Below the pieces are notes generated by a model. It ran no database searches. It was not told where the DNA came from and worked only from the letters and a program-made list of their open reading frames with translations. Position numbers and translations under genes: made by a program. Positions 50,188 through 64,000 of a stretch of 64,000 nt of DNA are shown one piece after another. Positions within the stretch are counted from its first letter, which is position 1. Each line of letters opens with the position of its first letter. The DNA comes from Vulcanimicrobiota bacterium (GTDB lineage: Bacteria; Vulcanimicrobiota; Vulcanimicrobiia; Vulcanimicrobiales; Vulcanimicrobiaceae): assembly GCA_003135555.1 (NCBI GenBank), contig PLCF01000085.1, positions 221,493 to 285,492 of the forward strand, written 5' to 3'.

Positions 50188-50823
50188 CTAACGCGGCCAG
50201 CGCAACGCGGTGATGATGATGGCGCCGGCGGCCAGCACCGCCATCGGTATCTCCGAGCGCAGACCGTCGGCTAACGAGCCGCGCTGCCCGGCGCCGGGCG
50301 CGATCTTCCACGGCAGCGGAACGAACCGCGCGACGCGCGCGCGGTAGCGCGCGTACGCTGCTCCGGCCCGGGGTGCCAGCGCGCGTTCCTCGACCACGAT
50401 AAGTGCGAGGTCGAGCGCGAGCACCCCGGCCACGACCAGCACGAACACCGGCCACGGGCCCAGCAGCCCGACGCCGACCGATTGGATCACGTTGCCCAGA
50501 TAGAGCGGATTGCGCGTGAAGCGGTAGGGCCCCGAGACGCGCAGCTCGCCGACGTGCACGTCCTCCTTCCAGACGATCGCGGCGGCCAGGTAGCTCGAGG
50601 CCCAAACCCGCAGGGCGTAGCCGCCCAGGACGCATGCGACCGCCAGCGCGCCGGCCAGCTCCGGCCGGCCTGAGGTGACGAACACCGGGGCGAGCGGCTG
50701 GCCGGTGAATCCGGCCAGCTCGTAGCCGAAGAAGAACGCGGCACCATAGACGAGCCCGAAAACCGTAAAGCGCTTGCGATAGAACCAGGGCGCGCCGCCG
50801 GCCGGGGTGACGGTCTCGCTCAT
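50188..50823 (-). CDS. ICMT/PEMT-family membrane methyltransferase
   Basis: SGPYRFTRNPLYLGN, EE...Y..Y...V.RF. Confidence 0.75.
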   Translation of the reverse strand: MSETVTPAGGAPWFYRKRFTVFGLVYGAAFFFGYELAGFTGQPLAPVFVTSGRPELAGALAVACVLGGYALRVWASSYLAAAIVWKEDVHVGELRVSGPYRFTRNPLYLGNVIQSVGVGLLGPWPVFVLVVAGVLALDLALIVVEERALAPRAGAAYARYRARVARFVPLPWKIAPGAGQRGSLADGLRSEIPMAVLAAGAIIITALRWPR

Positions 50824-51031
50824 CGCGCTTCCTCCGGCCGCCGGCGCGTCGAAACCCTGCTCACCGGGCGGTGAGTACGGTTCTGTACCAAAATGCACAT
50901 CCGGCGGCGGCCCGGCCGGCGTATGCTGTGAAGAGGACGGCGGCGCGCCTGCTTCTTCCCCGGAGCGGCCGACGCCAGCGCCGCCGTCCTCTACGCCGCC
51001 GCTGCGGCGAGGCGGGCACGCACGTATCGGC

Positions 51032-52084
51032 GTGGTACACTCTGTCGTCGTGCCCCATCCCCAACCCGTCGCAGGGCGTGCCGTCGCGCCGCTGTCGATC
51101 GGCCCCATCGAAGTCTGGCCGCCCATCGTGCTCGCGCCGATGTCGGGCGTGACCAACCGTACCCTGCGCGCCCTCTACAAGCCGTTCGGTTTCGGGCTGA
51201 CCGTCACCGAGTTCGTCTCCTCCAACGCGCTGCAGTACGGCGCCAAGCGCACGATGGAGATGATCGACCAGCACGGGGTGGAGCGGCCGGTCTCGACGCA
51301 GCTTTGGGGCAACGATCCGGCCATCATGGCGCTGGCCGCCAAGGTCGTGCGCGAGTGCGGGGCCGACATCGTCGACATCAACTTCGGGTGTCCGGCGCCG
51401 AAGGTCACCAAGACCGAGGGCGGCAGCGCGTGCCTGCGCGACATCGCGCGTTGCGAGGCGATCATGAAAGCGGTGGTCGCCGCCGTCGATTGTCCGGTCA
51501 CGATGAAGATGCGCCTCGGTTGGACCGAGAGCGAGCAGGTCTTCGTGGAGGTCGCCAAACGCGCGCAGGCCGTTGGGGTGCAGGCGCTCACGCTGCACGC
51601 GCGCACCGCCAAGCAGTTCTACAAGGGTAGCGCGGACTGGTCCAAGATCGCCGAGCTCAAGCGCGCGGTCGACATCCCGGTGATCGGCAACGGCGACTTG
51701 ACCGACCCCTACGACGCGATACACCGGCTGCGCGAGAGCGGCGTCGACGCGCTGATGCTGGGTCGTGCGACGCTGGGAAACCCGTGGCTGGTGTCGCGCT
51801 TGCGCGCGCTCATGGAGAACCGCGAACCGGCCGCCACGCCGGCGGCGCCGGACCGGCTGCGGTTCGCGGTCCATCACTATCGCACCATGGTCGAGGAGTG
51901 GGGTGAACCGCGCGCCGTGCCGCAGATGCGCAAGCATCTCGGGTACTACCTCAAGGGCTTCGCCGGCGCGGGCGCGTTGCGCGAGCGCCTCATGCGCACC
52001 GAGACCGCGGCGCAAACGCTCGACCTTCTCGAACAGACCATCGCGCAGCTCGAGCTGCACGCGAGCGAGCTCGCCGTCGCGTGA
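51032..52084 (+). CDS. dusB: tRNA-dihydrouridine synthase
   Basis: LAPMSGVT, DINFGCP, KMRLG, LHART, GNGD, GRATLGNPW, RKH. Start approximate. Confidence 0.9.
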   Translation: MVHSVVVPHPQPVAGRAVAPLSIGPIEVWPPIVLAPMSGVTNRTLRALYKPFGFGLTVTEFVSSNALQYGAKRTMEMIDQHGVERPVSTQLWGNDPAIMALAAKVVRECGADIVDINFGCPAPKVTKTEGGSACLRDIARCEAIMKAVVAAVDCPVTMKMRLGWTESEQVFVEVAKRAQAVGVQALTLHARTAKQFYKGSADWSKIAELKRAVDIPVIGNGDLTDPYDAIHRLRESGVDALMLGRATLGNPWLVSRLRALMENREPAATPAAPDRLRFAVHHYRTMVEEWGEPRAVPQMRKHLGYYLKGFAGAGALRERLMRTETAAQTLDLLEQTIAQLELHASELAVA

Positions 52085-53358
52085 GCCCCCTATACGGCGC
52101 GGCGAGCCCGGCCGCGCTGTTCGATGAAGTCTACGAGAACTACCGCAAGTATCTCAACCCGCCGCTGGCGCGCGTGATGAAGCTGTCGGGCTCGCCGGTG
52201 GAGGTGAGTGCCGAGGGCTGCATCATCACCGATCACGCCGGCAAGACGTACCTCGACTTCGCCGGCGGCTACGGCGTCTTCACGCTGGGCCACCGGCACC
52301 CGCGCGTCGTCGCCGCGGTCAAAGATCAGCTCGACCGCATGGCGCTGTCGGGGCGCACGATGTTCAACCCCTTGATGGGGCGTCTGGCGAAACGGCTGGC
52401 GGAGCTGGCGCCCGGCGATCTTTCGATCTCGTTCTTCGCCAACAGCGGCACCGAGGCGGTCGAGGGCGCGCTCAAGCTCGCGCGAGCGGCGACCAAACGT
52501 CCGGCGATCGTCGCGACCCACGGTGCGTTTCACGGCAAGACCCTGGGAGCACTCTCGGCCAGCGGACGCGACGCCTTCCGCGATCCGTTTCTGCCGCTGC
52601 TCGCCGGCGTGCGCCACGTCGCGTTCGGCGACGCCGCTGCGTTGCGCGCGGTCGTCGACGCGAACGTCGCCGCCGTCATCGTCGAGCCGGTCCAAGGTGA
52701 AGGCGGGGTCAACGTTCCGCCGGCTGGGTATTTGCGCGATGTGCGCGCGATCTGCGATGCGGCCGGCGCGGTGATGATCGCCGACGAGGTGCAAACCGGG
52801 TTGGGCCGCTGCGGCGAGCTGTTCGGCTGCGACCGCGACGGCGTCGTGCCCGACGTCATGACCCTGGCCAAGGGGCTGTCGGGCGGCGTCGTTCCGATCG
52901 GCGCGTACGTGGCGCGTCCGGCGGTGTGGAACGCAGCCTACGCGAAGCAGCCGCTCTTGCACACCTCGACCTTCGGCGGCAACGAGCTGGCGTGCGCGGC
53001 GGCGCTCGCCGCGCTCGACGTCCTGCGGGACGAAGATCTCGTCGCCAATGCCCGCGCGCGTGGCGCCCAGCTCCTCGCCGGCGCCCAGGCGACGGCTGGG
53101 CGCTATCCCGCCGTGGTCGCGCAAGCGCGCGGCGCCGGCCTGCTCGTCGGCGTCGAGCTGCGCAGCGAAGGGTACGGCGGCACGATCATCCCCGAGCTGC
53201 TCAAACGCGGCGTCACGGCGGCATGGACGCTCAACGCGCAGCGCGTGATCCGCCTCGAACCCCCGCTCATCGTGAGCGCCGCGCAGGTGGAGACGGCGTT
53301 GGCCGCGTTCGACGCCGCCGTCGCGAGCGCGTTCGAGCAGCTCGGAACGCTGCCCTGA
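52081..53358 (+). CDS. Class III PLP aminotransferase (putrescine/ornithine aminotransferase-like)
   Basis: YLDFAGG, NSGTEAVE, FHGKT, EPVQGEGG, DEVQTG, LAKGLSGG, STFGGN. Confidence 0.9.
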   Translation: MSPLYGAASPAALFDEVYENYRKYLNPPLARVMKLSGSPVEVSAEGCIITDHAGKTYLDFAGGYGVFTLGHRHPRVVAAVKDQLDRMALSGRTMFNPLMGRLAKRLAELAPGDLSISFFANSGTEAVEGALKLARAATKRPAIVATHGAFHGKTLGALSASGRDAFRDPFLPLLAGVRHVAFGDAAALRAVVDANVAAVIVEPVQGEGGVNVPPAGYLRDVRAICDAAGAVMIADEVQTGLGRCGELFGCDRDGVVPDVMTLAKGLSGGVVPIGAYVARPAVWNAAYAKQPLLHTSTFGGNELACAAALAALDVLRDEDLVANARARGAQLLAGAQATAGRYPAVVAQARGAGLLVGVELRSEGYGGTIIPELLKRGVTAAWTLNAQRVIRLEPPLIVSAAQVETALAAFDAAVASAFEQLGTLP

Positions 53359-53825
53359 TGCCGTTCGTCAAATGCGCGATCGACGTCACGGCCGCGGCGT
53401 CCGCGGTGTACGAGCTGGCCAAGGAACAGGAGCGCTTCCCCGAGTTCATGCCTGACGTCGAGACGGTCGTGGTGCTCGAACGGCATCCGGATCGGGTGGT
53501 CACGCGCTGGAAGACCTTGGTCGAGGATGCGCCGATCGAGTGGACCGAGGACGATCGCTTCGACGACGCCGCGCTGCGGATCGACTACGCGCTCATCGAG
53601 GGCGACCTCGACACCTTCGAGGGCGCTTGGACGTTCGAGCAGCGCGGGGACGTTACGCACGTCGTGCTGACGGTCGAGTACGACTTCGGCGTCCCGACGC
53701 TGGCCGAGCTGATCGGTCCGACGCTGGAGAAGAAGGTGCGCGAGAACGCGGAGATGATGCTGGTCGCGCTCAAGCGCGAGGCGGAATCACCGACGGTCCT
53801 GCAGTCGGCGCGCGGTACGCGCTAA
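53358..53825 (+). CDS. SRPBCC/START (polyketide cyclase-like) protein
   Basis: ERFPEFMP, IEWTE, EGDLDTFEGAW; start overlaps the aminotransferase stop. Confidence 0.8.
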   Translation: MPFVKCAIDVTAAASAVYELAKEQERFPEFMPDVETVVVLERHPDRVVTRWKTLVEDAPIEWTEDDRFDDAALRIDYALIEGDLDTFEGAWTFEQRGDVTHVVLTVEYDFGVPTLAELIGPTLEKKVRENAEMMLVALKREAESPTVLQSARGTR

Positions 53826-54867
53826 AGCGCGTGGCGCCCGACTGCGCGCGCTGCGGGATCGCGGCGTGCAGCAGCTCCACCGCCCGCACCAGCTCCTCGG
53901 CATAGGCGGGCTCTTCGATCCGAGCGGGGTCGTACGCCGCGCCGCGCACGCGAAAGGCGGCGCGTTCGATCTCGTCAAGCATGACCCCCGCCTTGGCGGC
54001 CCGCTCGCCGAAGGCGCGCATCCGTTGCAGCGTGTCCTCCAGGCGCACCACCTCGCTGCGGTAGTCTTCGTACTTGCGCCGCTCCTCGGCGACGCGGTCG
54101 CGCAGCTCCGGCCAGGCGCTCTCGCGAAAGCGCGCGATCTCCTCGCTCCCGCGCTCGGTGAAGCGGCGCTTGCGTGCGGCGACGATCTTGTGCTCCTCTT
54201 CGTCGGCGAACCGCGGCCCTTTGTTGCGCGCGCGGGCCAGCGCCGCGTGCTCCGCCGGCGTGTAGTCGGTCGCAAGCGTTACCCGGTCGCTGATCGCCGC
54301 GATCTCCTCGCGCCACACGTCCTCGACGGTCGGCGGCTCGTTGAGCGCGCCGAGTTGCGCGCGGCGGGCGGCGATCCGTTCGCGCCGCGCGTCGAGCTGT
54401 TCGCGCGCGCGCCGCACGCCGTCGCGCAACGGTGCGATCCAGGCGTTGTCGGCCGGCGCGTTGGGATCGTCGAAGCGCACCTCGATCCCCAAGCCCAACG
54501 GCTGCACCTCGGCGATGCGCCACTGGTCGTTCCCCGTCGTGACGATCCGCACGCGGCTGACGATCGGCGGCGCGGGTCCCGGCACGCGAAAGACGATGAA
54601 CCCCTTGCCGGTGTCGACCGCGGCCAGAATGTTCGCCTGATCGAGCGGCCGGGCGAAGGCGAGGATCCCCGAGTACGCCGACTCGGGCTGCCACACCGGC
54701 TCGTCGACATCGTCGTAGCGCCGGCTCCACAGCACCGCCCACAGCGCGTCGTGCGCCTCAGTGGCGAGCGCCCGATCTTGCGTCATCGCCTCGAGGGCCG
54801 CCCGGACGCTCGAGCGTCGAAACCGAGCCGTCACGCTCGCTTGGTTCGTGCGCGGTTCGGGCGACAC
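53770..54867 (-). CDS. Hypothetical protein with a coiled-coil region
   Basis: Host-like codons, E/R-rich helices; the start may instead be ATG 54786. Confidence 0.6.
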   Translation of the reverse strand: MSPEPRTNQASVTARFRRSSVRAALEAMTQDRALATEAHDALWAVLWSRRYDDVDEPVWQPESAYSGILAFARPLDQANILAAVDTGKGFIVFRVPGPAPPIVSRVRIVTTGNDQWRIAEVQPLGLGIEVRFDDPNAPADNAWIAPLRDGVRRAREQLDARRERIAARRAQLGALNEPPTVEDVWREEIAAISDRVTLATDYTPAEHAALARARNKGPRFADEEEHKIVAARKRRFTERGSEEIARFRESAWPELRDRVAEERRKYEDYRSEVVRLEDTLQRMRAFGERAAKAGVMLDEIERAAFRVRGAAYDPARIEEPAYAEELVRAVELLHAAIPQRAQSGATRFSAYRAPTAGPSVIPPRA

Positions 54868-54891
54868 CCGTCCGTCCGCGCCGCGGACCCC

Positions 54892-55548
54892 TCAGCCGGG
54901 CTTGGCGAACGCGACGATTTGGTTCTCAGCCCGGCAGTTGGTCCAAAACTTCGTCCCGTCGAAGCCCAGGCTGCGGGCCGCAAACCCGATCGATGCGAGC
55001 TCGACGACTTCAGGCTCGGCCTTGCGTGCATCGAGGCACAGCAGCCGATAGTCGTCGCTCTCGCGGCTCTCGGTAGTCGCGAGGTAGAAGCGTCCCGCCA
55101 CGACCACCATACCGGTGATCTGGGCGGGGACGGGGATCGAGCGCAGCACGGTGCCGGCCTGGTCGAGCTCGAGGATGCACCGGTGGTCGCGCTGGCTGAG
55201 ATACAGCCGGTCACCGTCGTAGGCCAAGAACGATCCGGTGTGATCGGGACAGGCGATCGCGTCGGACTTGAAGTCTTTGCCCATGATGTAGCGGCGTATG
55301 AAACGGTCGTCGTTCTCGTCGCCGACGACCACCCGGAGCGCATCTCCGGTCACGGTCAGACCGTATGGCCTGCCGGGTGCTTTGGACTCCTCGAAGACCG
55401 TGCCGCGTTGGGCGTTGAGACCGTAGATACGATGGGTCTCGAAGGAGCCGATCCAGAGGTCCGTCCCGTCGCACGCGAGCCCGATCGGGGCCGGGCAGGG
55501 GGCGGGGATTCGGAGGAGCTCATCGATGGTCGAGAGCGTCTGATGCAT
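54892..55548 (-). CDS. Beta-propeller protein (glutamine cyclotransferase/YncE-like)
   Basis: Repeats GLACDGTDLW, GLTVTGD, LAYDGDRLY, SLGFDGTKFW. Confidence 0.6.
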   Translation of the reverse strand: MHQTLSTIDELLRIPAPCPAPIGLACDGTDLWIGSFETHRIYGLNAQRGTVFEESKAPGRPYGLTVTGDALRVVVGDENDDRFIRRYIMGKDFKSDAIACPDHTGSFLAYDGDRLYLSQRDHRCILELDQAGTVLRSIPVPAQITGMVVVAGRFYLATTESRESDDYRLLCLDARKAEPEVVELASIGFAARSLGFDGTKFWTNCRAENQIVAFAKPG

Positions 55549-55615
55549 GCCCGCAAACCTTTCCCGCAACGGGTCGCGGGCTCCCGGCGGCGGAGGGGCG
55601 AATCGGGGCGGCGGG

Positions 55616-56725
55616 ATGGCGAAATTCTGCTTTGTGATCCACCCCCTCTCGTTCGAGGACGTCGTGCGCTACGAGCCCGGCGCCAAGGGCAAGGGCAAGC
55701 CGATCATCGCGAAGATCATGGAGTGGATGCCGTCGTGGGCGGCCGCTCACGTGACCGGCGTTCGCACGCCCGACGGCCGGGAGACCGAGGGCTGGTTCGT
55801 CGCCGCCGGCCTGCTGCCGACGCAGATGCTCGAGCTGCCGCGCGAGCAGGTCTATGACCGCATCCTCAAAGCGATCGCGATCGGCGCGGATCTCGGCGCC
55901 GAGGTGGCCGGCTTGGGCGCGTTCACCGGCGTCGTCGGCGACGGCGGCGTGACGATCAACGAGCGTTCGCCGATCCCGGTGACCACCGGAAACTCGCTGA
56001 CCATCGCCGCCGGCGTGCGCAGCCTGTTTCGCGGCGCGCAGGAGATGGGGATCGACGCGCGCGCCGCGACCGCGGTCGTCGTGGGCGCGACGGGCTCGAT
56101 CGGCGCCGCCTGCGTCGAGCTGATCGCGCCGCACGTCGGACAGGTGATCCTGGTCGCTCGCAACGAGACGCGGCTGCGAAAATTCTTTGAGAGCGTACGC
56201 GAGCGGCTGCCCTGCGACGCGTCGTTCACGACGGAGATCGGCGCGGCGGTGCAGCGTGCCGACCTGGTGCTGACCGCGACCTCGTCGACGCAGGACGTGA
56301 TCGAGCCCGAAGACCTGCGCACCGGTGCGGTCGTGTGCGAGCTCTCGCTCCCGCACGACGTCAGCCGGCGCGTCGCGGTGGAACGGCCCGACGTCCTCGT
56401 GGTCGAGGGCGGAAACATGCGCGTTCCGGGCGACATGCGCTGGTGGCGCGTGCGCGAGCCGGGTGCGACCTTCGACATGGGGCTGCCGCAAGGCACCGCG
56501 CTTGCATGCATGTCCGAGACGATGGTGCTGGCGCTGGAGAACCGCTGCGAGCCGTACACGCTGGGGCGCGGGATCGACCTCGCGAAGGTGCGCGAGATCG
56601 ACGCACTCGCCGAGCAGGCCGGCTTCTCGCTCGCCGACATGCGGGCGTTTGACCTGCCGATCTCGCGCGAACAGGTCGCGCGCACGCGCGCCGCCGCGGA
56701 GCAGCGCCGGGCGGCGACGGCATGA
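55616..56725 (+). CDS. Acyl-ACP reductase-like NAD(P) oxidoreductase
   Basis: FVIHP, EGWF, GLGAFT, TTGNSLT, VVGATGSIG, ACMSETM..ALE, matching the motif order of cyanobacterial AAR. Confidence 0.7.
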   Translation: MAKFCFVIHPLSFEDVVRYEPGAKGKGKPIIAKIMEWMPSWAAAHVTGVRTPDGRETEGWFVAAGLLPTQMLELPREQVYDRILKAIAIGADLGAEVAGLGAFTGVVGDGGVTINERSPIPVTTGNSLTIAAGVRSLFRGAQEMGIDARAATAVVVGATGSIGAACVELIAPHVGQVILVARNETRLRKFFESVRERLPCDASFTTEIGAAVQRADLVLTATSSTQDVIEPEDLRTGAVVCELSLPHDVSRRVAVERPDVLVVEGGNMRVPGDMRWWRVREPGATFDMGLPQGTALACMSETMVLALENRCEPYTLGRGIDLAKVREIDALAEQAGFSLADMRAFDLPISREQVARTRAAAEQRRAATA

Positions 56726-57201
56726 ACGTTCACCCGCACGTCTACGCGACGCGACTGCGCTGGATCGGCGCCGCCGGCGGCGCGACGACCTCGTATAAGA
56801 CGTATTCGCGCGACTACGCGATCGAGGCCGACGGCAAGCCCGAGCTGCGCGGCTCGGCCGACCCGCACTTTCTCGGCGACGCCACGCGCTACAACCCCGA
56901 GGACCTGTTGGTGGCCGCACTTTCGGCCTGTCATCTGCTGACGTACCTGGCGGAATGCGCGCGCGCCGGCATTGCCGTGGTCGCGTACGAGGACGACGCG
57001 CATGGCGAGATGACGCTGATCGACGGGGTGATGCGTTTTCGCGAAGTCGTGTTGCATCCGAAGGTCGCGCTCGCCGACTCAGCGCGCATCGACGAAGCGA
57101 TTGCGCTCCACGAGCGCGCGCACGGACTCTGCTTCATCGCCAACAGCGTAAACTTCCCCGTCCATCACGAGGCTGCTGTGACGGCCGCACAACCCGCATG
57201 A
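56722..57201 (+). CDS. OsmC/Ohr family protein
   Basis: GSADP.F.GD, NPEDLLVAALSACH, CFIANSV. Confidence 0.88.
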   Translation: MNVHPHVYATRLRWIGAAGGATTSYKTYSRDYAIEADGKPELRGSADPHFLGDATRYNPEDLLVAALSACHLLTYLAECARAGIAVVAYEDDAHGEMTLIDGVMRFREVVLHPKVALADSARIDEAIALHERAHGLCFIANSVNFPVHHEAAVTAAQPA

Positions 57202-57216
57202 TGCGAGAAATGGCGA

Positions 57217-57247
57217 CGGCCGCCACGCTGGGTGAGCGTGACGGCCG
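57217..57247. terminator. GC-rich hairpin between osmC and the convergent ncRNA
   Basis: CGGCCGCCACGCT-GGGTG-AGCGTGACGGCCG. Confidence 0.5.
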
Positions 57248-57377
57248 CGGCGGTGTGACAACAGGTCCTGACTTGACCAGTCTACCACACCGTGAACCGG
57301 CGCGCCATCGCCGGGCTGGAGCGAGCGGGAGTCGAACCCGCGCAACGTGGCTGTCAGGACCAGTTGTCGGACCGCCG
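57248..57377 (-). ncRNA. Candidate Y RNA (YrlA-like, circularly permuted tRNA mimic)
   Basis: 5' GGCGGUCCGA start; long terminal helix (57353-57377 with 57248-57272); T arm GCGGG-UUCGACU-CCCGC; D arm UA-GACU-GGUCA-AGUC; upstream -10-like TATGCT. Confidence 0.55.
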
Positions 57378-57433
57378 AATCGCCCCAGCATAGCGTCTAT
57401 CACGCAACCGCAACAGTTTGGCAAGGACCCGGC

Positions 57434-58345
57434 GTGAAAAAAGTCGTGTCCGTTTCACTCGGTTCGTCGTCGCGGGATCATCATGCGGAAGTGGATTTGC
57501 TGGGCGAGCGGTTCGCTATTTCGCGGGTGGGGACGGATGGTTCGATCGACAAGGCGATTGCGCGGATCAAAGAGCTCGACGGCACCGTCGACGCGATCGG
57601 GCTGGGCGGGATCGATGTCTACTTGTATGCCGGCAAAGAGCGGTACGCGCTGCGCGACGGGTTGCGGCTGCTCGCTGCCGCCACGCAAACCCCGGTGGTC
57701 GACGGTAGCGGGCTCAAGAATACGCTCGAGCGCAATGCGATCGCATTTTTACACGACGTGCTAGGCATCGAGCTGCGCGGCAAACGCGTGCTGATGGTCA
57801 GCGCGCTCGACCGCTTCGGGATGGCGCAGGCGCTGGTCCAGGCCGGCGCCGACGTGGTCTTCGGCGACTTCATCTTCGCGCTCGACCTCGACCGGCCGGT
57901 CCGCGGGCTGGACGAGTTCGAGGAGATGGCGCGCAAGTATCTTCCCGACGCCTGCAAGCTGCCGTTCCAGTTCTTCTATCCGACCGGGAAGAAGCAAGAT
58001 CGTGCGCCGCAGCCCAAGTACCCCGAGTACTACGACGACGCCGAGATCATCGCCGGCGACTATCACTTCATGCGGCAGTTCATGCCCGAGCGGCTCGACG
58101 GCAAGACGATCCTCACCAACACGGTCACCGCGAGCGACGTCGACTTCCTGCGCGGCCACGGGATCGCGCGGCTGGTGACGACGACGCCGGACTTCGGCGG
58201 CCGTTCGTTCGGCACCAACGTCGTCGAGGCGGCGATGATCGCGCTGCTGGGCAAACGCTGGGCCGACGTAACCGAGGACGACTACCGGCGACTGATGCGC
58301 GAGCTCGACCTCAAACCGCGCGTGATCGAGTTCAGCGGCGCGTAG
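57434..58345 (+). CDS. Uncharacterised Rossmann-type protein (family often annotated quinate 5-dehydrogenase)
   Basis: KKVVSVSLGSS.RDH, DAIGLGG, VDGSGLK.TLE, DRFGMA, GRSFGTNV. Confidence 0.6.
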   Translation: MKKVVSVSLGSSSRDHHAEVDLLGERFAISRVGTDGSIDKAIARIKELDGTVDAIGLGGIDVYLYAGKERYALRDGLRLLAAATQTPVVDGSGLKNTLERNAIAFLHDVLGIELRGKRVLMVSALDRFGMAQALVQAGADVVFGDFIFALDLDRPVRGLDEFEEMARKYLPDACKLPFQFFYPTGKKQDRAPQPKYPEYYDDAEIIAGDYHFMRQFMPERLDGKTILTNTVTASDVDFLRGHGIARLVTTTPDFGGRSFGTNVVEAAMIALLGKRWADVTEDDYRRLMRELDLKPRVIEFSGA

Positions 58346-58348
58346 CGC

Positions 58349-59770
58349 TTGTCGCTCGTCCGCAATCTCTTCGCGCGCCAGGCGCACGACCGCGAACGCT
58401 TGCCGTCCGACGGCGTGCCGCTGCGCCGCGTGCTCGGCGTGTGGGGCTTGGTCGCGGTCGGCTTGGGAACGATGCTCGGCGGAATCTTCACCACCGTCGG
58501 CACCGGCGCGCACGCCGCGGGCCCGGCGGTCGTGGCCGCGTTCGGGCTCTCGGGGATCACCTGTTTGTTCGTCGCGCTGTGCTACGCCGAGCTGGCTTCG
58601 ATGGTCCCGGTCGCGGGCAGCGCCTACACCTACGCCTACGCGGCGCTGGGCGAGATCGTCGCGTGGGTCATCGGGTGGGATCTCATCCTCGAATACGGGA
58701 TCAGCGTCGCTCCGCTCGCGGCAACATTTTCCGGCGCGTTGCAGCAGCTGCTGGCCAGAACGGGTCTCACGCTGCCGTCGTGGGCGCAGACGGCGAACCT
58801 GATCTTTGCGCACGGCCGGATCGATTTCGCGCACTCCCAGCTCGACGTCACGGCATGCGTAGCAATCGTGATTCTCGCGCTCGTCCTGGCGATCGGGATT
58901 CGCGAGTCGGCGGCGACCAACGTGCTGCTGGTGGTGATCCAACTCGTCGCGCTCGTGGGCTTCGTGGTGTTTTTGGGCGGCGCCGTCAGGCCCGGCGCCT
59001 ACCACCCCTTCGCACCGCTCGGGCTGGGTGGGATCGTGACCAGCGCCGCGCTCGTGTTCTTCGCCTACATCGGATTCGATACCGTGACCGTGGCCAGCGA
59101 GGAAGCGCACAACCCGCAGCGTGACGTCCCGCGCGCGATCATCCTCTCGCTGCTCATCGGGGCGCTGCTCTTCGCGGCGGTCGCGGCGGTAGCCGTAGGC
59201 GTCGTCGCCTGGGACAAGATCGACACCAACTCGGGGATGCTCGACGCCGTGACGCACGCCGGAAACAATCCGTGGCTGTTCGGCCTGGTGCTCGTCGGCA
59301 CGGTCACCGGGACCGCGGCGTCGATGCTGATCTCGCTGCTCGGACAGGTGCGCATCTTCTACGTGATGTCGCGCGACCGGTTGCTGCCGGCGGCCTTCGG
59401 CGCGGTAAACCCGCGCACGCGCACGCCGGTGCGCATGACGCTGGGGACCGGGATCGTGGTCGCGATCCTCGCGCTGGGCGTCCCGCTGCAGACGCTGCTG
59501 GAGTTCGTCAACATCGGCACGCTGTCGGCGTTCGTCATCGTGTGCGCCGGCGTCATGGTCTTGCGCTTCACGCACGCCGAGGTCGCGCGGCCGTTTCGCG
59601 TTCCGTTCGGTCCGGTGGTCGTCCCGGCGATCGGGATCGTCCTGTGCGTGTGGCTGACGGTGCAAGGTCTCGCGGCGCTGACGTGGCTGCGATTCCTGGT
59701 GTGGTTCGTGGTGGGGCTGGCGATCTACGCGCTGTACGGCTACCGCAAGTCGCGCCTGCGCGGGCGCTGA
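58349..59770 (+). CDS. APC amino acid permease (cationic amino acid transporter-like)
   Basis: GTMLGGIF, CYAELAS.VP.AGSAY, FFAYIGFD, EE..NPQR, NIGTL. Confidence 0.9.
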   Translation: MSLVRNLFARQAHDRERLPSDGVPLRRVLGVWGLVAVGLGTMLGGIFTTVGTGAHAAGPAVVAAFGLSGITCLFVALCYAELASMVPVAGSAYTYAYAALGEIVAWVIGWDLILEYGISVAPLAATFSGALQQLLARTGLTLPSWAQTANLIFAHGRIDFAHSQLDVTACVAIVILALVLAIGIRESAATNVLLVVIQLVALVGFVVFLGGAVRPGAYHPFAPLGLGGIVTSAALVFFAYIGFDTVTVASEEAHNPQRDVPRAIILSLLIGALLFAAVAAVAVGVVAWDKIDTNSGMLDAVTHAGNNPWLFGLVLVGTVTGTAASMLISLLGQVRIFYVMSRDRLLPAAFGAVNPRTRTPVRMTLGTGIVVAILALGVPLQTLLEFVNIGTLSAFVIVCAGVMVLRFTHAEVARPFRVPFGPVVVPAIGIVLCVWLTVQGLAALTWLRFLVWFVVGLAIYALYGYRKSRLRGR

Positions 59771-61098
59771 TGACCGGTGCGCCGCGGCTGGTTCGCGTCC
59801 TCGCTTTGCGCGATCTGATCGTCGTCGCGGCCGCGTCGATGGGCCCGGCCTTCTCGCTGGCGACGACGATGGCAGCGATGCTCGCGACGGCCGGGCGCTG
59901 GACCTGGCTGGCGCTGGCGCTCGTCGCGCTGCTGATGGCGATGATCGCGGTCGGCTACAAGCGTTTGGGCGAGCGGATGCGCGACGCGGGCTCCTCGTAT
60001 GCCTGGATTCGGGCGGCGTTCGGGCCTGAGGCCGGAGCCTACGGTGCGTGGGTGCTGCTCGTCGCAAACCTGTTCGCGGTGCTCGCGACGGCGCTGCCCG
60101 CCGGGACGTACACGCTCGATCTCGTCGCGCCGGCGCTGGCGCCCAACGGCCTCGCCGTCGCGCTCGTCGCCTGCGCTTGGATCGTCGCGGCGGCGTTGCT
60201 GCTGTGGTATGGCTTGCGTCCGACGGCGCTGGTGGCGTTCGCGCTGCTGGGGGCCGAGGTCGTCGTGCTCGCCGCAGCGGCCGGCCTGTCGGCTGCGCAC
60301 CCGCGCTCCGACGGCGTCGCCTTCGCCCCGCTGCCGCTGGGCTGGGGCGCTCTCGTGCCGGCGATGGTGGTTGGAATCTGGATGATCGACGGCTGGGAAG
60401 TCGCGGCTTCGACCGCCGAGGAGGCGCAGGGCGCGCCCTCGGTACCCGGTTGGGGTGGGCTCGCCGGGCTCGTCCTCACCAGCGCCGTCCTGCTGGGGGC
60501 GATCGCCGCGTTCGCGCGCATCGGCAGCGCGGCGGGGTTCGCCGCGCACGAGAGCGACGCGCTGGCATACGTCGGCGACCTGCTCGGCGGCGCGTGGCGG
60601 CCGGTCTTGACCGCCACCGTCCTGGTCTCGCTCGCCGCAGCGCTGCAGACGACGCTGGTCTACCTGACCCGCAGCATCTACGCGATGGGCCGCGACCGTT
60701 TGCTCCCGCGCGGCTTGGGCACGCTGGACAAGCGCTCCGAGCCGGCTGCCGCGATCGTCACGATCGCCGCCCTCTCGGCGCTCTTCGCGTTGCTCGCCGG
60801 CCTGTCGCCGACGGCCAAGGGCGCGTTCGGCGTGGCCTTGGCGGGGACGTCGTGGTTTCTGGGCCTGCTGTTCGTGCTGAGCGCCTTAGCCGCGGTCCGC
60901 TTCTTCGCTTCGCAGGGAACCGCACGCTGGTCGGGAGCCGTTGTGCCGGGGACGGCGGCGCTGGCGTTGAGCGTGATCCTGGCGCTAGGGTTCGCGGCGG
61001 ACGATACCCTCACCAGGGGTTTCATCGCCGCCTCCGCAATCATCGGGCTTCCCCTAGCGCTCTGGCGCGGATGGGCCCTTCGCCGGGCGCCGAACTAG
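59770..61098 (+). CDS. APC-family permease
   Basis: MGPAFS, AGSSYAW, GWE...TAEE, RSIYAMGRD; about 12 TM segments. Confidence 0.75.
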   Translation: MTGAPRLVRVLALRDLIVVAAASMGPAFSLATTMAAMLATAGRWTWLALALVALLMAMIAVGYKRLGERMRDAGSSYAWIRAAFGPEAGAYGAWVLLVANLFAVLATALPAGTYTLDLVAPALAPNGLAVALVACAWIVAAALLLWYGLRPTALVAFALLGAEVVVLAAAAGLSAAHPRSDGVAFAPLPLGWGALVPAMVVGIWMIDGWEVAASTAEEAQGAPSVPGWGGLAGLVLTSAVLLGAIAAFARIGSAAGFAAHESDALAYVGDLLGGAWRPVLTATVLVSLAAALQTTLVYLTRSIYAMGRDRLLPRGLGTLDKRSEPAAAIVTIAALSALFALLAGLSPTAKGAFGVALAGTSWFLGLLFVLSALAAVRFFASQGTARWSGAVVPGTAALALSVILALGFAADDTLTRGFIAASAIIGLPLALWRGWALRRAPN

Positions 61099-61125: not shown

Positions 61126-61629
61126 TTGAACGACAAAGAAATCGTTTTGACCCGGGATGGGCTCAAGAAGCTCGAGGAAGAGCTCGACGAGCTCAAGAGC
61201 GTCCATCGCCGCGAGGTCAACGAACGCATCCGTCAAGCCAAAGAGTTCGGCGACATCTCTGAAAACGCCGAGTACGAGGACGCGAAGCAAGAGCAGGCCT
61301 TCGTCGAAGGACGCATCCTCAAGCTCGAGGCGATGATCCGCAACGCCCGCGTCATCGATGCCAGCGACTACGTCGCCGACGAGGTCCACCTCGGCGCGAC
61401 GATCCGCGTGAAGGAAACCAACTCGAGCACTTCGCGCGACTTCACCATCGTCGGGTCGGCCGAGGCCGATCCCAAGAACGCGCGGCTCTCGAACGAGTCG
61501 CCGCTGGGGCGTGCGGTGATGGGCCGCAAGAAAGGCGAGACCGTCGACGTCGCGACGCCCAGCGGTTTGAAGAAATACAAGATCGAGTCGATCAACAAGG
61601 ATCCCAAGAAGACCAAGAAGGCGTCGTAG
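61126..61629 (+). CDS. greA: Transcription elongation factor GreA
   Basis: LTRDG..KLEEEL, FGDISENAEY, SNESPLG. Confidence 0.95.
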   Translation: MNDKEIVLTRDGLKKLEEELDELKSVHRREVNERIRQAKEFGDISENAEYEDAKQEQAFVEGRILKLEAMIRNARVIDASDYVADEVHLGATIRVKETNSSTSRDFTIVGSAEADPKNARLSNESPLGRAVMGRKKGETVDVATPSGLKKYKIESINKDPKKTKKAS

Positions 61630-61665: not shown

Positions 61666-63465
61666 ATGGATAACCTGATCCAATCGCATCGTGCGAGGCT
61701 TGAGAATCTCCGCGGGCTGGGCGTTGATCCATTCGCTGCCAGGCGATTTGAAGTCACCGCGCATGCAGCAAGCTTGGCGGAACGGTATGAGATGCTTCCG
61801 CCACAAGGTCGCGACGAGATCGATAGCTGGGCTGTCGCCGGTCGCATCATGGCCGTGCGCCGACAGGGCGGCGTAATATTCTTTGATCTGCACGATCGGA
61901 CAGGGCGGTTTCAACTTTTTGTCCGCAGGGACGACGTCGGTAACGAAGACTTTGCGATTGCGAAGGAGCTTGAGCGAGGAGATATCGTTGGGGCGGCCGG
62001 TTTTGTTTTTCGCACCAAAGCTGGAGACTTGGCACTCTACTTAAAGTCTTTGGAAGTACTCGGGAAATTGCTGCGACCGCTGCCCGACAAATGGCACGGT
62101 TTGCAAGACATCGAGAAGCGATATCGTCAACGCTATGTGGATCTCCTAGTCAACCCCGATGTGCGCGATCTGATGATAACGCGCTCTCGCATTGTTGCGG
62201 AGATGCGCCGTTTCATCGATGCTGAGGGATTTCTGGAAGTTGAGACGCCGACGTTGCTAAACGTCGCCGGCGGAGCATCTGCGCGTCCATTTTTTACGCA
62301 TTCAAATGCGCTTAATATCCCGCTTAGTTTGCGAATCGCAACGGAGTTATACCTCAAACGCCTGATTGTTGGAGGGATGGAGCGCGTTTACGAAATCGGT
62401 CGTATTTGGCGCAATGAAGGAATCGATACAACACACAATCCTGAGTTTACGATGCTGGAGCTATACGCGGCATTTTGGGACGTTAGCGACATGATGCTCT
62501 TTAACGAGCGTCTTATGGCACATCTTGCAAACGTAGTTCACGGTAGTGAGACCGTAGTGCACGGCGACGATGTGCTATCGTTCGCACCCCCATTTCGCCG
62601 GATCGGATATCTCGAGGCATTTGCGGAGTACGGGGGGATCGAGCGGGAGCGGTTGCTCGATGCTCAAGCGTGCACTCGATTGCTGAGCGAGTTCGGTATG
62701 CCTGCCTCTCCAACCCACGCTCATGCGCTCGACAAGTTGTTCGAGCGAATCGTTGAACCCCGGCTCTTGCAACCCACGTTCGTCTACGGATATCCGGTGT
62801 TGCTTTCCCCGCTGGCGAAGAGAATGAAAGATGATCCACAGTTGACCGAGCGGTATGAGCTTTTTGCCGGCCACATGGAGCTTGCGAATGCGTTTACCGA
62901 ACTCAATGATCCCGACGATCAGCGGCGCCGATTTGAATCGCAATTGGGCGAGCGCGCAGCCGGAGACGCTGAGGTCCCGCCGGCCGATTGGGACTTCGTG
63001 ACAGCCCTCGAGTACGGCATGCCCCCGACGGCCGGAATTGGGGTCGGTATCGACCGCCTCGTCATGATGTTAACTGACAAGACGTCAATTAGAGACGTAT
63101 TACTCTTCCCGCTGCAGCGCCCGCTCCCCGACCTTATCGCGTTCAACCGTCGCGGCCTAGTGCGGTCAGCGCTACGGGACCCCGAGGTTGTGGTTGACGT
63201 CCTCTCCGCGTCCCCTGAGATTAGGGTTGCTCATAAGACCACGGGCCAAATGACCCGAGTTCTTCTATACGAATCCGACAGCTTTCCGTTGATGGATTTT
63301 GTAACGACTGCTTCGCCAATCTCTCATCAGCTGTTGTCCGATATCATGAAATGGTCCGCCCATATTTCGGCGAACGCGGGGAAGAGTCCACCAGCGGGCG
63401 AGCAACAAAATTCCGATACTGTTGCTGCCCCTAGCGATAGCGCCACACCACTGAACGAAGGATAA
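61666..63465 (+). CDS. lysS: Lysine--tRNA ligase (class II) with a C-terminal extension
   Basis: AGRIM, LPDKWHGL, YRQRY, EVETP, LRIATEL, RNEG..HNPEF, ELANAF, YGMPP, GIDRL, DVLLFP; about 113 extra codons follow. Confidence 0.92.
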   Translation: MDNLIQSHRARLENLRGLGVDPFAARRFEVTAHAASLAERYEMLPPQGRDEIDSWAVAGRIMAVRRQGGVIFFDLHDRTGRFQLFVRRDDVGNEDFAIAKELERGDIVGAAGFVFRTKAGDLALYLKSLEVLGKLLRPLPDKWHGLQDIEKRYRQRYVDLLVNPDVRDLMITRSRIVAEMRRFIDAEGFLEVETPTLLNVAGGASARPFFTHSNALNIPLSLRIATELYLKRLIVGGMERVYEIGRIWRNEGIDTTHNPEFTMLELYAAFWDVSDMMLFNERLMAHLANVVHGSETVVHGDDVLSFAPPFRRIGYLEAFAEYGGIERERLLDAQACTRLLSEFGMPASPTHAHALDKLFERIVEPRLLQPTFVYGYPVLLSPLAKRMKDDPQLTERYELFAGHMELANAFTELNDPDDQRRRFESQLGERAAGDAEVPPADWDFVTALEYGMPPTAGIGVGIDRLVMMLTDKTSIRDVLLFPLQRPLPDLIAFNRRGLVRSALRDPEVVVDVLSASPEIRVAHKTTGQMTRVLLYESDSFPLMDFVTTASPISHQLLSDIMKWSAHISANAGKSPPAGEQQNSDTVAAPSDSATPLNEG

Positions 63466-63467
63466 AG

Positions 63468-63890
63468 ATGTTCGTCACGTCGATGCTCGCCGATGCGGCG
63501 CAAGTGAACATGGGTAAGCTGTACATATTGGGCGGCAATATCGATAATATCCCTGCCGGCTTCCCCTTTGCGCTGGTTCTTATTGTTGACGTTGATTGGG
63601 ACGAGACAAACAAACGACATGACCTGATCGTTAGCCTCGTTGACGGCGACGGTGCTATGACGTTTCTTCCGGGCCCGGCCGGTAGTCAGCCATTCGAGTT
63701 TAAATCACAGTTCGAGCTAGGGCGCCCTCCAGGCGTGCCAACTGGTGTACAGATGCGGCTACCAATCACGCTTTCAATACCAGGACTACAGGTATCCCCA
63801 GGTCGCTACCAATTTCGCGTGTCTGTCAAGGGGCAGCGGAATCCCCAGTGGGATTGCGCGTTCTCAATTACACAGCTGCCCCCACAATGA
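63468..63890 (+). CDS. Hypothetical all-beta protein (DUF6941-like)
   Basis: LADAA...GKLYILGG, PGRY; begins 2 nt after lysS with a GAAGGA RBS; AT-richer codons. Confidence 0.6.
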   Translation: MFVTSMLADAAQVNMGKLYILGGNIDNIPAGFPFALVLIVDVDWDETNKRHDLIVSLVDGDGAMTFLPGPAGSQPFEFKSQFELGRPPGVPTGVQMRLPITLSIPGLQVSPGRYQFRVSVKGQRNPQWDCAFSITQLPPQ

Positions 63891-64000
63891 CAGGGCCCGC
63901 TAGTGCGCGCCGCCCAGTGAGGCATTAGGTGCTGCGCGTCAGGGCTAGGCGTTGCAGTATATTCAAGTCAAAATGTGGGTGAAGTGACCCCGCGGTTTCT

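Follow-up and report, generated by a model that had tools for sequence, protein, structure and literature searches.

Reduction of a thioester to an aldehyde and transamination of that aldehyde are combined in a single protein, PigE, of the Serratia prodigiosin MAP pathway: its N-terminal domain, which resembles AAR, the cyanobacterial reductase of acyl-acyl carrier protein, and carries Cys296, reduces the thioester, and its C-terminal domain transaminates the aldehyde (PMC8341465; here and below, citations refer to the accessible parts of the papers). The same pair of domains occurs in KecF (koreenceine, Pseudomonas koreensis), PP_2782, Tmar_2123 and Tfer_2018, which are fusions of an aminotransferase to an AAR (COG5322) domain (PMC6498172, PMC10829540), and the transaminase domains of PP_2782 and of three thermophile fusions take simple aliphatic aldehydes and amines as substrates (PMC10829540). 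Formation of dodecylamine from fatty acyl-ACP (ACP, acyl carrier protein) is also a proven route, proceeding via an aldehyde both with TamH in Pseudoalteromonas (PMC9594044) and with TabQ/TabJ/TabE/TabA in Streptomyces albus (bioRxiv 10.1101/2025.08.11.669332). Here we analyse a stretch of 64,000 nucleotides from a Vulcanimicrobiota bacterium (contig PLCF01000085.1; hereafter called the window), in which four plus-strand genes encode a class III (omega-) aminotransferase, a START/SRPBCC protein, an AAR-like reductase and a protein of no known family that we call protein X. As judged from sequence comparison, we give a slightly better than even chance (about 55%) to the reading that these four genes represent a split, four-protein form of a PigE/KecF-type thioester reductase plus omega-transaminase.

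Both enzymes were compared with the PigE family model and with proteins of solved structure. The reductase matched the N-terminal part of the NCBIfam PigE model NF053554 (positions 48-360) with 188.2 bits and the aminotransferase its C-terminal part (positions 376-732) with 421.7 bits, both scores lying far below the family cut-off of 850 bits. Among PDB sequences, PigE (4ppm) was the best match to the reductase (E 3.9e-33), with AAR (6jzq) at E 5.3e-18 and the cysteine motif aligned in both, and the aminotransferase matched E. coli YgjG (5h7d) with E 2.5e-111 and PigE with E 9.5e-92. The catalytic cysteine of PigE and the lysine that carries pyridoxal phosphate (PLP) are both kept in the window pair. 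The cysteine is Cys298 of the reductase, within the motif ACMSETM at residue 297, which aligns with ACFAEAM of AAR (Cys294) and belongs to a pattern, CM.ET..LALENR, that is kept relative to 4ppm; it was nearly invariant among 32 diverse reductase relatives. The lysine is Lys264 of the aminotransferase, in TLAKG, aligned with LAK of YgjG. The reductase further carries TTGN at residue 123 and GATGSIG at residue 157. Against the two models for putrescine aminotransferase, the aminotransferase scored 464.1 bits (NF008570, cut-off 612) and 407.4 bits (TIGR03372, cut-off 658.65). Since both enzymes find their best match among characterised proteins in PigE, a route from thioester via aldehyde to amine is well supported. 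The reductase and the aminotransferase most likely belong together in running this route.

With regard to cyanobacterial AAR (TIGR04058; 6jzq, 6jzu), the reductase resembles it in fold, in the motifs TTGN, GATGxIG and AC..E and, by homology, in the cysteine/NADPH mechanism. It scored only 90.7 bits against TIGR04058, however (90.1 in the whole-genome search), where the cut-off is 449.7 bits. AAR also passes its aldehyde to a bound partner, aldehyde-deformylating oxygenase (ADO), whereas the partner in the present module would be a transaminase, and neither the window nor the 84%-complete assembly yielded an ADO match (PF11266, E <= 0.01). The window differs from PigE as well: PigE is one polypeptide of 837-861 aa encoded in a pigment cluster, whereas the window encodes its reductase and its aminotransferase in two genes, with about 2.2 kb between them, accompanied by conserved START and X partners at a housekeeping locus that is conserved across the phylum. 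The aminotransferase and START genes are translationally coupled, the ATG of the latter overlapping the stop codon of the former in TGATG. The original prediction had placed all four genes on the plus strand, with this coupling, the three reductase motifs and no ADO in the window, and these observations are all confirmed, the last of them now for the assembly too. In the strict sense the reductase is not an AAR, given its TIGR04058 score, and the prediction was silent on the two minus-strand genes and on OsmC, which break up the four.

The KecF-type fusions differ from the window in being fused, in having the aminotransferase first and in lying mostly in polyketide-type clusters, and no START or X partner is mentioned in the accessible parts of the papers describing them (PMC6498172, PMC10829540). 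For the Tam and Tab routes the likeness is functional only: TabE is of the aldehyde-dehydrogenase type and not an AAR, and both systems sit in pigment clusters with a carrier protein of their own. We found no description of the split four-gene form, of the START and X partners or of the phylum-wide conservation at a housekeeping locus in open-access papers and preprints (supplements excluded). The thioester-to-amine chemistry is thus of a known kind; what is new is X as a partner.

Conservation of the module was followed in 41 relatives, which represent three families of one class and include the genome of the window itself. The aminotransferase (as an orthologue with at least 61% identity), the START protein and X were each present in 40 of them and the reductase in 39, one genome (G024) having only a 28-residue end piece of it. 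All four genes were absent together from a single genome (G012, 74% complete), and in another (G023) the contig stops after the START gene. In family f3, the most distant of those sampled, the four genes directly follow one another on the same strand in 11/11 genomes (e.g. G031:C5 39195-42990), a count that becomes 10/10 when the unpublished G036 is excluded. In family f2 and in the genus of the window, 0.7-3.5 kb of inserted genes separate START from the reductase.

A wider set of related loci was found with an alignment of ten reductase sequences and examined by tblastn with the window proteins. The best 80, taken at one genome per species, were mostly from the same phylum, with other phyla sampled at the tail only. 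Where the reductase identity was at least 50%, the four genes were colinear in 53 of 59 loci, the other six being cut by contig ends; among the 21 more distant loci they were colinear in seven, and X alone adjoined the reductase in six. It is evident that the grouping of the four genes is far beyond chance. In most related loci the module has a Dus gene upstream, and GreA follows it in 49 of the 60 loci holding all four genes. In Eremiobacterota the module, and in Bacillota the X-reductase pair, is nested between dusB and greA-lysS(-truA) (loci L013-L098). Such nesting is either gene order retained from long ago or the sign of an as yet unexplained connection with translation. The closest named homologues of the reductase and X came mostly from Candidatus Eremiobacteraeota/Vulcanimicrobiota, including Baltobacteraceae, Candidatus Elarobacter, Candidatus Velthaea and Vulcanimicrobium alpinum, and from a few metagenome bins labelled otherwise.

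Two irregular copies were also seen among the relatives. One genome holds a second, decayed module (G021:C3:801165-806893), in which the aminotransferase has an in-frame TGA, the START gene is split in two and the reductase is broken into four pieces. In another (G032:C2:151900-152989) the reductase is in two overlapping pieces, possibly owing to a frameshift or an assembly error.

Fusions provide a second line of evidence. A search with the reductase gave 2,928 representatives, and 26 long proteins among the best 150 were scanned against Pfam. The scan revealed START-reductase fusions (P0156, P0161, P0169, P0175 and P0191), PilZ-START-reductase fusions (P0136, P0151 and P0159), aminotransferase-reductase fusions (P0211, P0222 and P0269) and one aminotransferase-reductase-AMP-binding adenylase fusion of 1406 aa (P0241). 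The domains concerned are homologous to the window proteins, as judged by 26% identity (E 8e-17) between the window START protein and the START domain of P0156, and 44% identity (E 7e-98) between the window aminotransferase and that of P0241. In addition, proteins of about 700 aa whose first 300 residues were without a Pfam match turned out to be X-reductase fusions, their N-terminal halves matching X by BLASTP with E values of 2e-50, 3e-26 and 1e-26; many named ones come from Chloroflexota (Roseiflexus, Chloroflexaceae, Anaerolineae and Caldilineales). The adenylase in P0241 argues for the reductive, biosynthetic direction, from acid via aldehyde to amine, and the START-reductase fusions argue for a hydrophobic ligand.

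Some reductase relatives carry signalling domains, in the arrangements PilZ-START-reductase, HTH-PilZ-START-reductase and reductase-GAF (P0136, P0151, P0159 and P0220). The PilZ and GAF fusions hint at control by cyclic di-GMP or another small ligand in other lineages.

Outside the phylum, the four families were seen together in two diderm Firmicutes. In Candidatus Frackibacter and Phascolarctobacterium the gene order is coaX-dusB-X-reductase-greA-lysS, and an aminotransferase gene (48-51% identity) followed directly by a START gene (38-39% identity) lies at a separate genomic site. Co-occurrence in diderm Firmicutes, which had been put forward as a check, was therefore positive in both genomes examined, in the form of two separate gene pairs. 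Desulforadius and Caloramator have the reductase without an adjacent X, and a START homologue was not found in either genome.

Structure models were used to compare the two putative partner proteins with known folds. The AlphaFold model of the START protein (pLDDT 89.7) shows a beta-sheet and a long C-terminal helix, and its best fold match was TTHA0849 of Thermus thermophilus HB8 (2d4r; TM 0.87, rmsd 1.6, 32% identity over the full length), which is also its nearest solved relative by sequence (E 6.1e-22). In a 2026 review TTHA0849 is still hypothetical, with a pocket of about 18 cubic angstroms (PMC13525633), and no mention of TTHA0847, TTHA0848, TTHA0850 or TTHA0851 was found in the open-access literature.

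Protein X (model pLDDT 91.5) had AAR as its best fold match among 48,161 chains (6jzq_A; Z 14.5, rmsd 4.4, 248 residues aligned, 10% identity). The second was TAD (9e4s_A; Z 13.0), after which the matches drop to Z 10.3. TAD, a putative terminal amidation domain of a non-ribosomal peptide synthetase (carmabin CarI), has the AAR fold with an invariant cysteine next to NAD (bioRxiv 10.1101/2024.10.28.620694); its activity is unproven, and the reductase also gave a weak sequence match to it. The conserved residues of X are D90, G91, E99, R100, D145 and K224. Unlike TAD, X has no conserved cysteine, and a GxGxxG motif was not seen at the expected position of the Rossmann turn. Taken together with the AAR/TAD fold, this makes X a reductase look-alike that has lost the catalytic signature of the reductase. 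The database labels of X ('quinate 5-dehydrogenase', 'hypothetical' and, in the fused form, 'serine carboxypeptidase') were judged to be mislabels. A PlsX-like protein or a kinase making acyl phosphate was also considered for X and was rejected on account of the fold.

A complex of the reductase with X was predicted with a score of 0.51, the best control reaching 0.00. The runs shared at least 85% of the contacts, with a partner pLDDT of at least 83. Of 157 solved complexes, 116 pass the mark, as do two of 215 mismatched pairs, and it should be underlined that passes scoring no more than 0.60 comprise only 18 of the 157 solved complexes, yet both passing mismatches. These benchmark counts hold only roughly for the reductase-X pair, for which own alignments were supplied. 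The prediction lends weak support to a partnership of the two proteins.

Based on these comparisons, the module would most likely work as follows. By homology, the acyl moiety of a thioester, either acyl-ACP or acyl-CoA, would be transferred to Cys298 of the reductase and reduced there with NAD(P)H (motif GATGSIG) to the free aldehyde, which the YgjG/PigE-type aminotransferase, with PLP on Lys264, would turn into a primary amine. The fusions, the folds and the synteny suggest that the START protein and X are partners of the reductase. They would probably hold a hydrophobic substrate or the reactive aldehyde, channel it or scaffold a complex, redox catalysis by either being unlikely. That the acyl chain is hydrophobic, resembling a fatty acid, and that the amine goes into some component of the envelope would be guesses only.

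The layout of the locus is given in Table 1. Genes were called from the listing of open reading frames (ORFs) together with Pfam and NCBIfam, and the junctions were read directly in the sequence. The GTG start of the aminotransferase gene overlaps the stop codon of dusB (GTGA), the OsmC gene is overlap-coupled to the reductase gene via ATGA, and OsmC and X are separated by a spacer of 232 bp. Since the module is interrupted by two minus-strand genes, by OsmC and by this spacer, it spans at least three transcription units here and is not a single operon.

Table 1. Genes of the module and its surroundings in the window (positions refer to the window)
Feature	Position	Strand	Remarks
dusB (tRNA dihydrouridine synthase)	51098..52084 (start approximate)	+	TIGR00737, 345.9 bits; match begins at residue 98 of the ORF starting at 50807
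Class III (omega-) aminotransferase, YgjG/PigE type, 425 aa	52081..53358	+	PF00202, 348.5 bits (gathering score 30.5)
START/SRPBCC (helix-grip) protein, 155 aa	53358..53825	+	PF03364, 67.2 bits (gathering score 23.4)
365-aa gene, no known family	53770-54867	-	between START gene and reductase
225-aa gene, no known family	54892-55569	-	between START gene and reductase
AAR-like / PigE-N-domain-like NAD(P)H thioester reductase (putative), 369 aa	55616..56725	+	PigE model and motifs; longest ORF begins at 55547
OsmC-family protein, 159 aa	56722..57201	+	PF02566, 53.3 bits
Protein X, 303 aa	57434..58345	+	no Pfam or NCBIfam family
Two APC-family permeases, plus strand	58349-61098		between X and greA; first BcaP-like, 444 bits, below cut-off
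greA	61126-61629	+	matches Pfam-confirmed GreA genes of related loci
Class II aminoacyl-tRNA synthetase, LysS type	61666-63465	+	Pfam
DUF6941 ORF	63468-63890

The intervening genes vary between loci. OsmC, a lineage-specific insert outside the conserved core, lies between the reductase and X in only nine of the 59 close loci and is missing at this site from f2 and f3. The 225-aa minus-strand gene has a homologue in 15 of the 59, situated in the START-reductase gap in those that were read. Homologues of the first APC permease were found downstream of X in only some loci (e.g. L019, L020, L027, L051 and L069), none of them in f2 or f3, and the permeases look like a lineage-specific insert at the level of the genus.

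A scan for promoters and terminators from 50500 to 58600 gave results no better than shuffles. ARAGORN found no tRNA between 50000 and 64000, and Rfam no match at its gathering score in the same interval. The spacer between OsmC and X contains, on the minus strand at 57314-57386, a fragment with a T-arm and an acceptor ending in CCA, which resembles the 3' end of a tRNA or of the tRNA-like part of a tmRNA. It scored 19.6 bits (E 3e-6) against the Rfam tmRNA model, whose gathering score of 47 it does not reach, and no whole gene was called there by ARAGORN; the fragment may be the attachment-site scar of the insertion that brought OsmC. The G+C content of the region is about 69%; in positions 62001-64000 it falls to 0.548, compared to about 0.69 elsewhere. 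The sequencing runs containing 52081-58345 were of peat metagenome DNA from several studies, with no RNA run listed.

Several observations weigh against the reading of the module as a split PigE/KecF-type system, or against a fatty substrate for it. In the window itself the module is broken by two opposite-strand genes and OsmC, the reductase stands alone in eight of the 21 distant loci, and in Firmicutes the aminotransferase-START and X-reductase pairs are unlinked. The constant neighbours are dusB, greA, lysS and truA, and no gene for an ACP, an acyl-activating enzyme, an acyltransferase or a glycosyltransferase was found conserved beside the module in the related loci. The nearest solved relative of the aminotransferase is putrescine aminotransferase, an enzyme acting on small diamines, and the pocket of TTHA0849, if its reported size is taken at face value, is too small for a long chain. 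With regard to the chemistry, purified PigE without cell lysate gave no clear reductase activity (PMC8341465). The only cultured member of the phylum, V. alpinum, has 12 unidentified polar lipids (one polar lipid, four glycolipids and seven lipids), none of which is termed an aminolipid in the accessible text (PMC9758169); these data leave room for an unusual lipid and demonstrate nothing.

Of the other explanations, the one that survives best retains the chemistry and changes the substrate to a small or non-lipid one, so that a short amine, a di- or polyamine or a cyclic imine would result. We regard this as unlikely. It would accord with the closeness of the aminotransferase to putrescine aminotransferase, with the tiny pocket of TTHA0849 and with the fact that PigE and KecF are described as acting on functionalised C10-C14 chains that cyclise. 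The START-reductase fusions, on the other hand, suggest a hydrophobic ligand, and the adenylase of P0241 is of the AMP-binding type that activates an acyl or aryl acid. The substrate in this explanation would be a thioester that is short or functionalised, or conceivably an aminoacyl-tRNA. In favour of the latter, the NAD domain of the reductase weakly matches glutamyl-tRNA reductase (GluTR; NF000744, 43.9 bits), GluTR was the second-best template in the PigE paper (PMC8341465), and the module or the X-reductase pair adjoins greA-lysS in both Eremiobacterota and Bacillota. However, it is the fold alone that ties the reductase to tRNA, and dusB, greA and lysS form a housekeeping array whose function is not necessarily common to the genes nested in it. 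The constant lysS neighbour might suggest Lys-tRNA as the substrate, at low odds.

A less likely explanation still is that the genes are neighbours without a common pathway. The aminotransferase and START protein would then be a diamine- or ornithine-type unit, X and the reductase would supply aldehydes for alcohols, wax esters or hydrocarbons, and their adjacency would be inherited gene order. The separate sites of the two pairs in Frackibacter and Phascolarctobacterium are consistent with this, as are the interruptions in the window and the X-reductase pairs and fusions that are widespread without a nearby aminotransferase, e.g. in Chloroflexota and Armatimonadota. It is, however, difficult to reconcile with the aminotransferase-reductase(-adenylase) and START-reductase fusions, whose domains are homologous to the window proteins, or with the order aminotransferase-START-reductase-X, kept in 60 four-gene loci despite insertions. 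The four genes are moreover missing together from G012, the aminotransferase-START pair occurs in both examined diderm Firmicutes that have an X-reductase pair, and no START homologue was found in either genome with a lone reductase.

That the module runs in reverse as a catabolic pathway, with an amine being deaminated by the aminotransferase and the resulting aldehyde being converted to a thioester by the AAR-like enzyme in the role of an acylating aldehyde dehydrogenase, is improbable: both reactions are reversible in principle, putrescine aminotransferase runs from amine to aldehyde in the PatA/YgjG pathway of E. coli, and two APC permeases of the amino-acid/amine type lie just downstream of X, but the characterised AAR-type enzymes (AAR and PigE) are all reductive, the adenylase fusion fits only activation of an acid followed by reduction, the permeases are a genus-level insert absent from f2 and f3, and the locus has a constitutive and housekeeping character, without a regulator.

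Returning to the split PigE/KecF-type reductase-transaminase, the identity of its substrate can be viewed against the lipids of Deinococcus and Thermus. Deinococcus lipids contain alkylamines, and we know of no gene that has been assigned to the alkylamine branch of the N-glyceroyl-alkylamine phosphoglycolipids of Deinococcus-Thermus. The evidence for Deinococcota is indirect and consists, besides the likeness of TTHA0849 to the START protein, of profile matches in 14 named control genomes. Matches to TIGR04058 were below the cut-off in T. thermophilus and D. radiodurans, were also seen in Methanocaldococcus and were above the cut-off in Synechococcus; the putrescine-aminotransferase model at E <= 1e-110 recovered E. 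coli and T. thermophilus only, and at 1e-85 six genomes. Judged by such comparison, three of the four families are represented in T. thermophilus. No Deinococcota were present among the best 80 loci, nor among the 143 records of a plasmid protein search, which came mostly from Ralstonia megaplasmids and whose annotated matches were in a class III aminotransferase gene. A 2022 Thermus paper proposes that phosphatidyl-glyceric alkylamine arises by attachment of a branched fatty amine, a step for which its accessible part mentions no gene (PMC9636437).

The original prediction was of a route from acyl-ACP via aldehyde to alkylamine for envelope lipids. The sequence of thioester, aldehyde and amine is upheld by PigE homology, synteny and fusions, but the fatty substrate and the envelope-lipid fate gain nothing from the neighbouring genes, which are of the housekeeping kind. 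The Deinococcota setting implied by its reasoning also gives way, since the closest named homologues point to Eremiobacterota. A fatty or lipid substrate and the link to alkylamine lipids would be an inference only. In its boldest form, which we put forward tentatively and consider doubtful, the module would be the source of membrane alkylamines that has long been sought: from an (iso-branched) fatty acyl-ACP it would form a primary amine with a long chain, and N-acylation of this amine would yield an envelope lipid, of a class not yet described, in Eremiobacterota and diderm Firmicutes. The homologues in Thermus (TTHA0849, the YgjG-like aminotransferase and the AAR-like reductase) would then make the alkylamine of its phosphoglycolipids, and X would be a pseudo-reductase subunit of a new kind, which controls or loads the AAR-type enzyme.

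If the split four-protein reading is true, X would be a new accessory subunit accompanying AAR-type reductases in at least four phyla, and the loci would offer biocatalysis natural split reductase-transaminase sets, complete with helper proteins, for converting fatty acids to amines. The module would further provide candidate genes for the alkylamine of the phosphoglycolipids of Thermus and Deinococcus. The current database labels of its genes are shikimate dehydrogenase, quinate 5-dehydrogenase, NAD(P)H-binding protein and hypothetical. For Eremiobacterota, it would give a first handle on their unidentified lipids or envelope chemistry, and would mean that a gene set conserved throughout the phylum turns an activated acid into a primary amine in the course of ordinary cell physiology, and not as a side-branch that leads to a pigment or an antibiotic.

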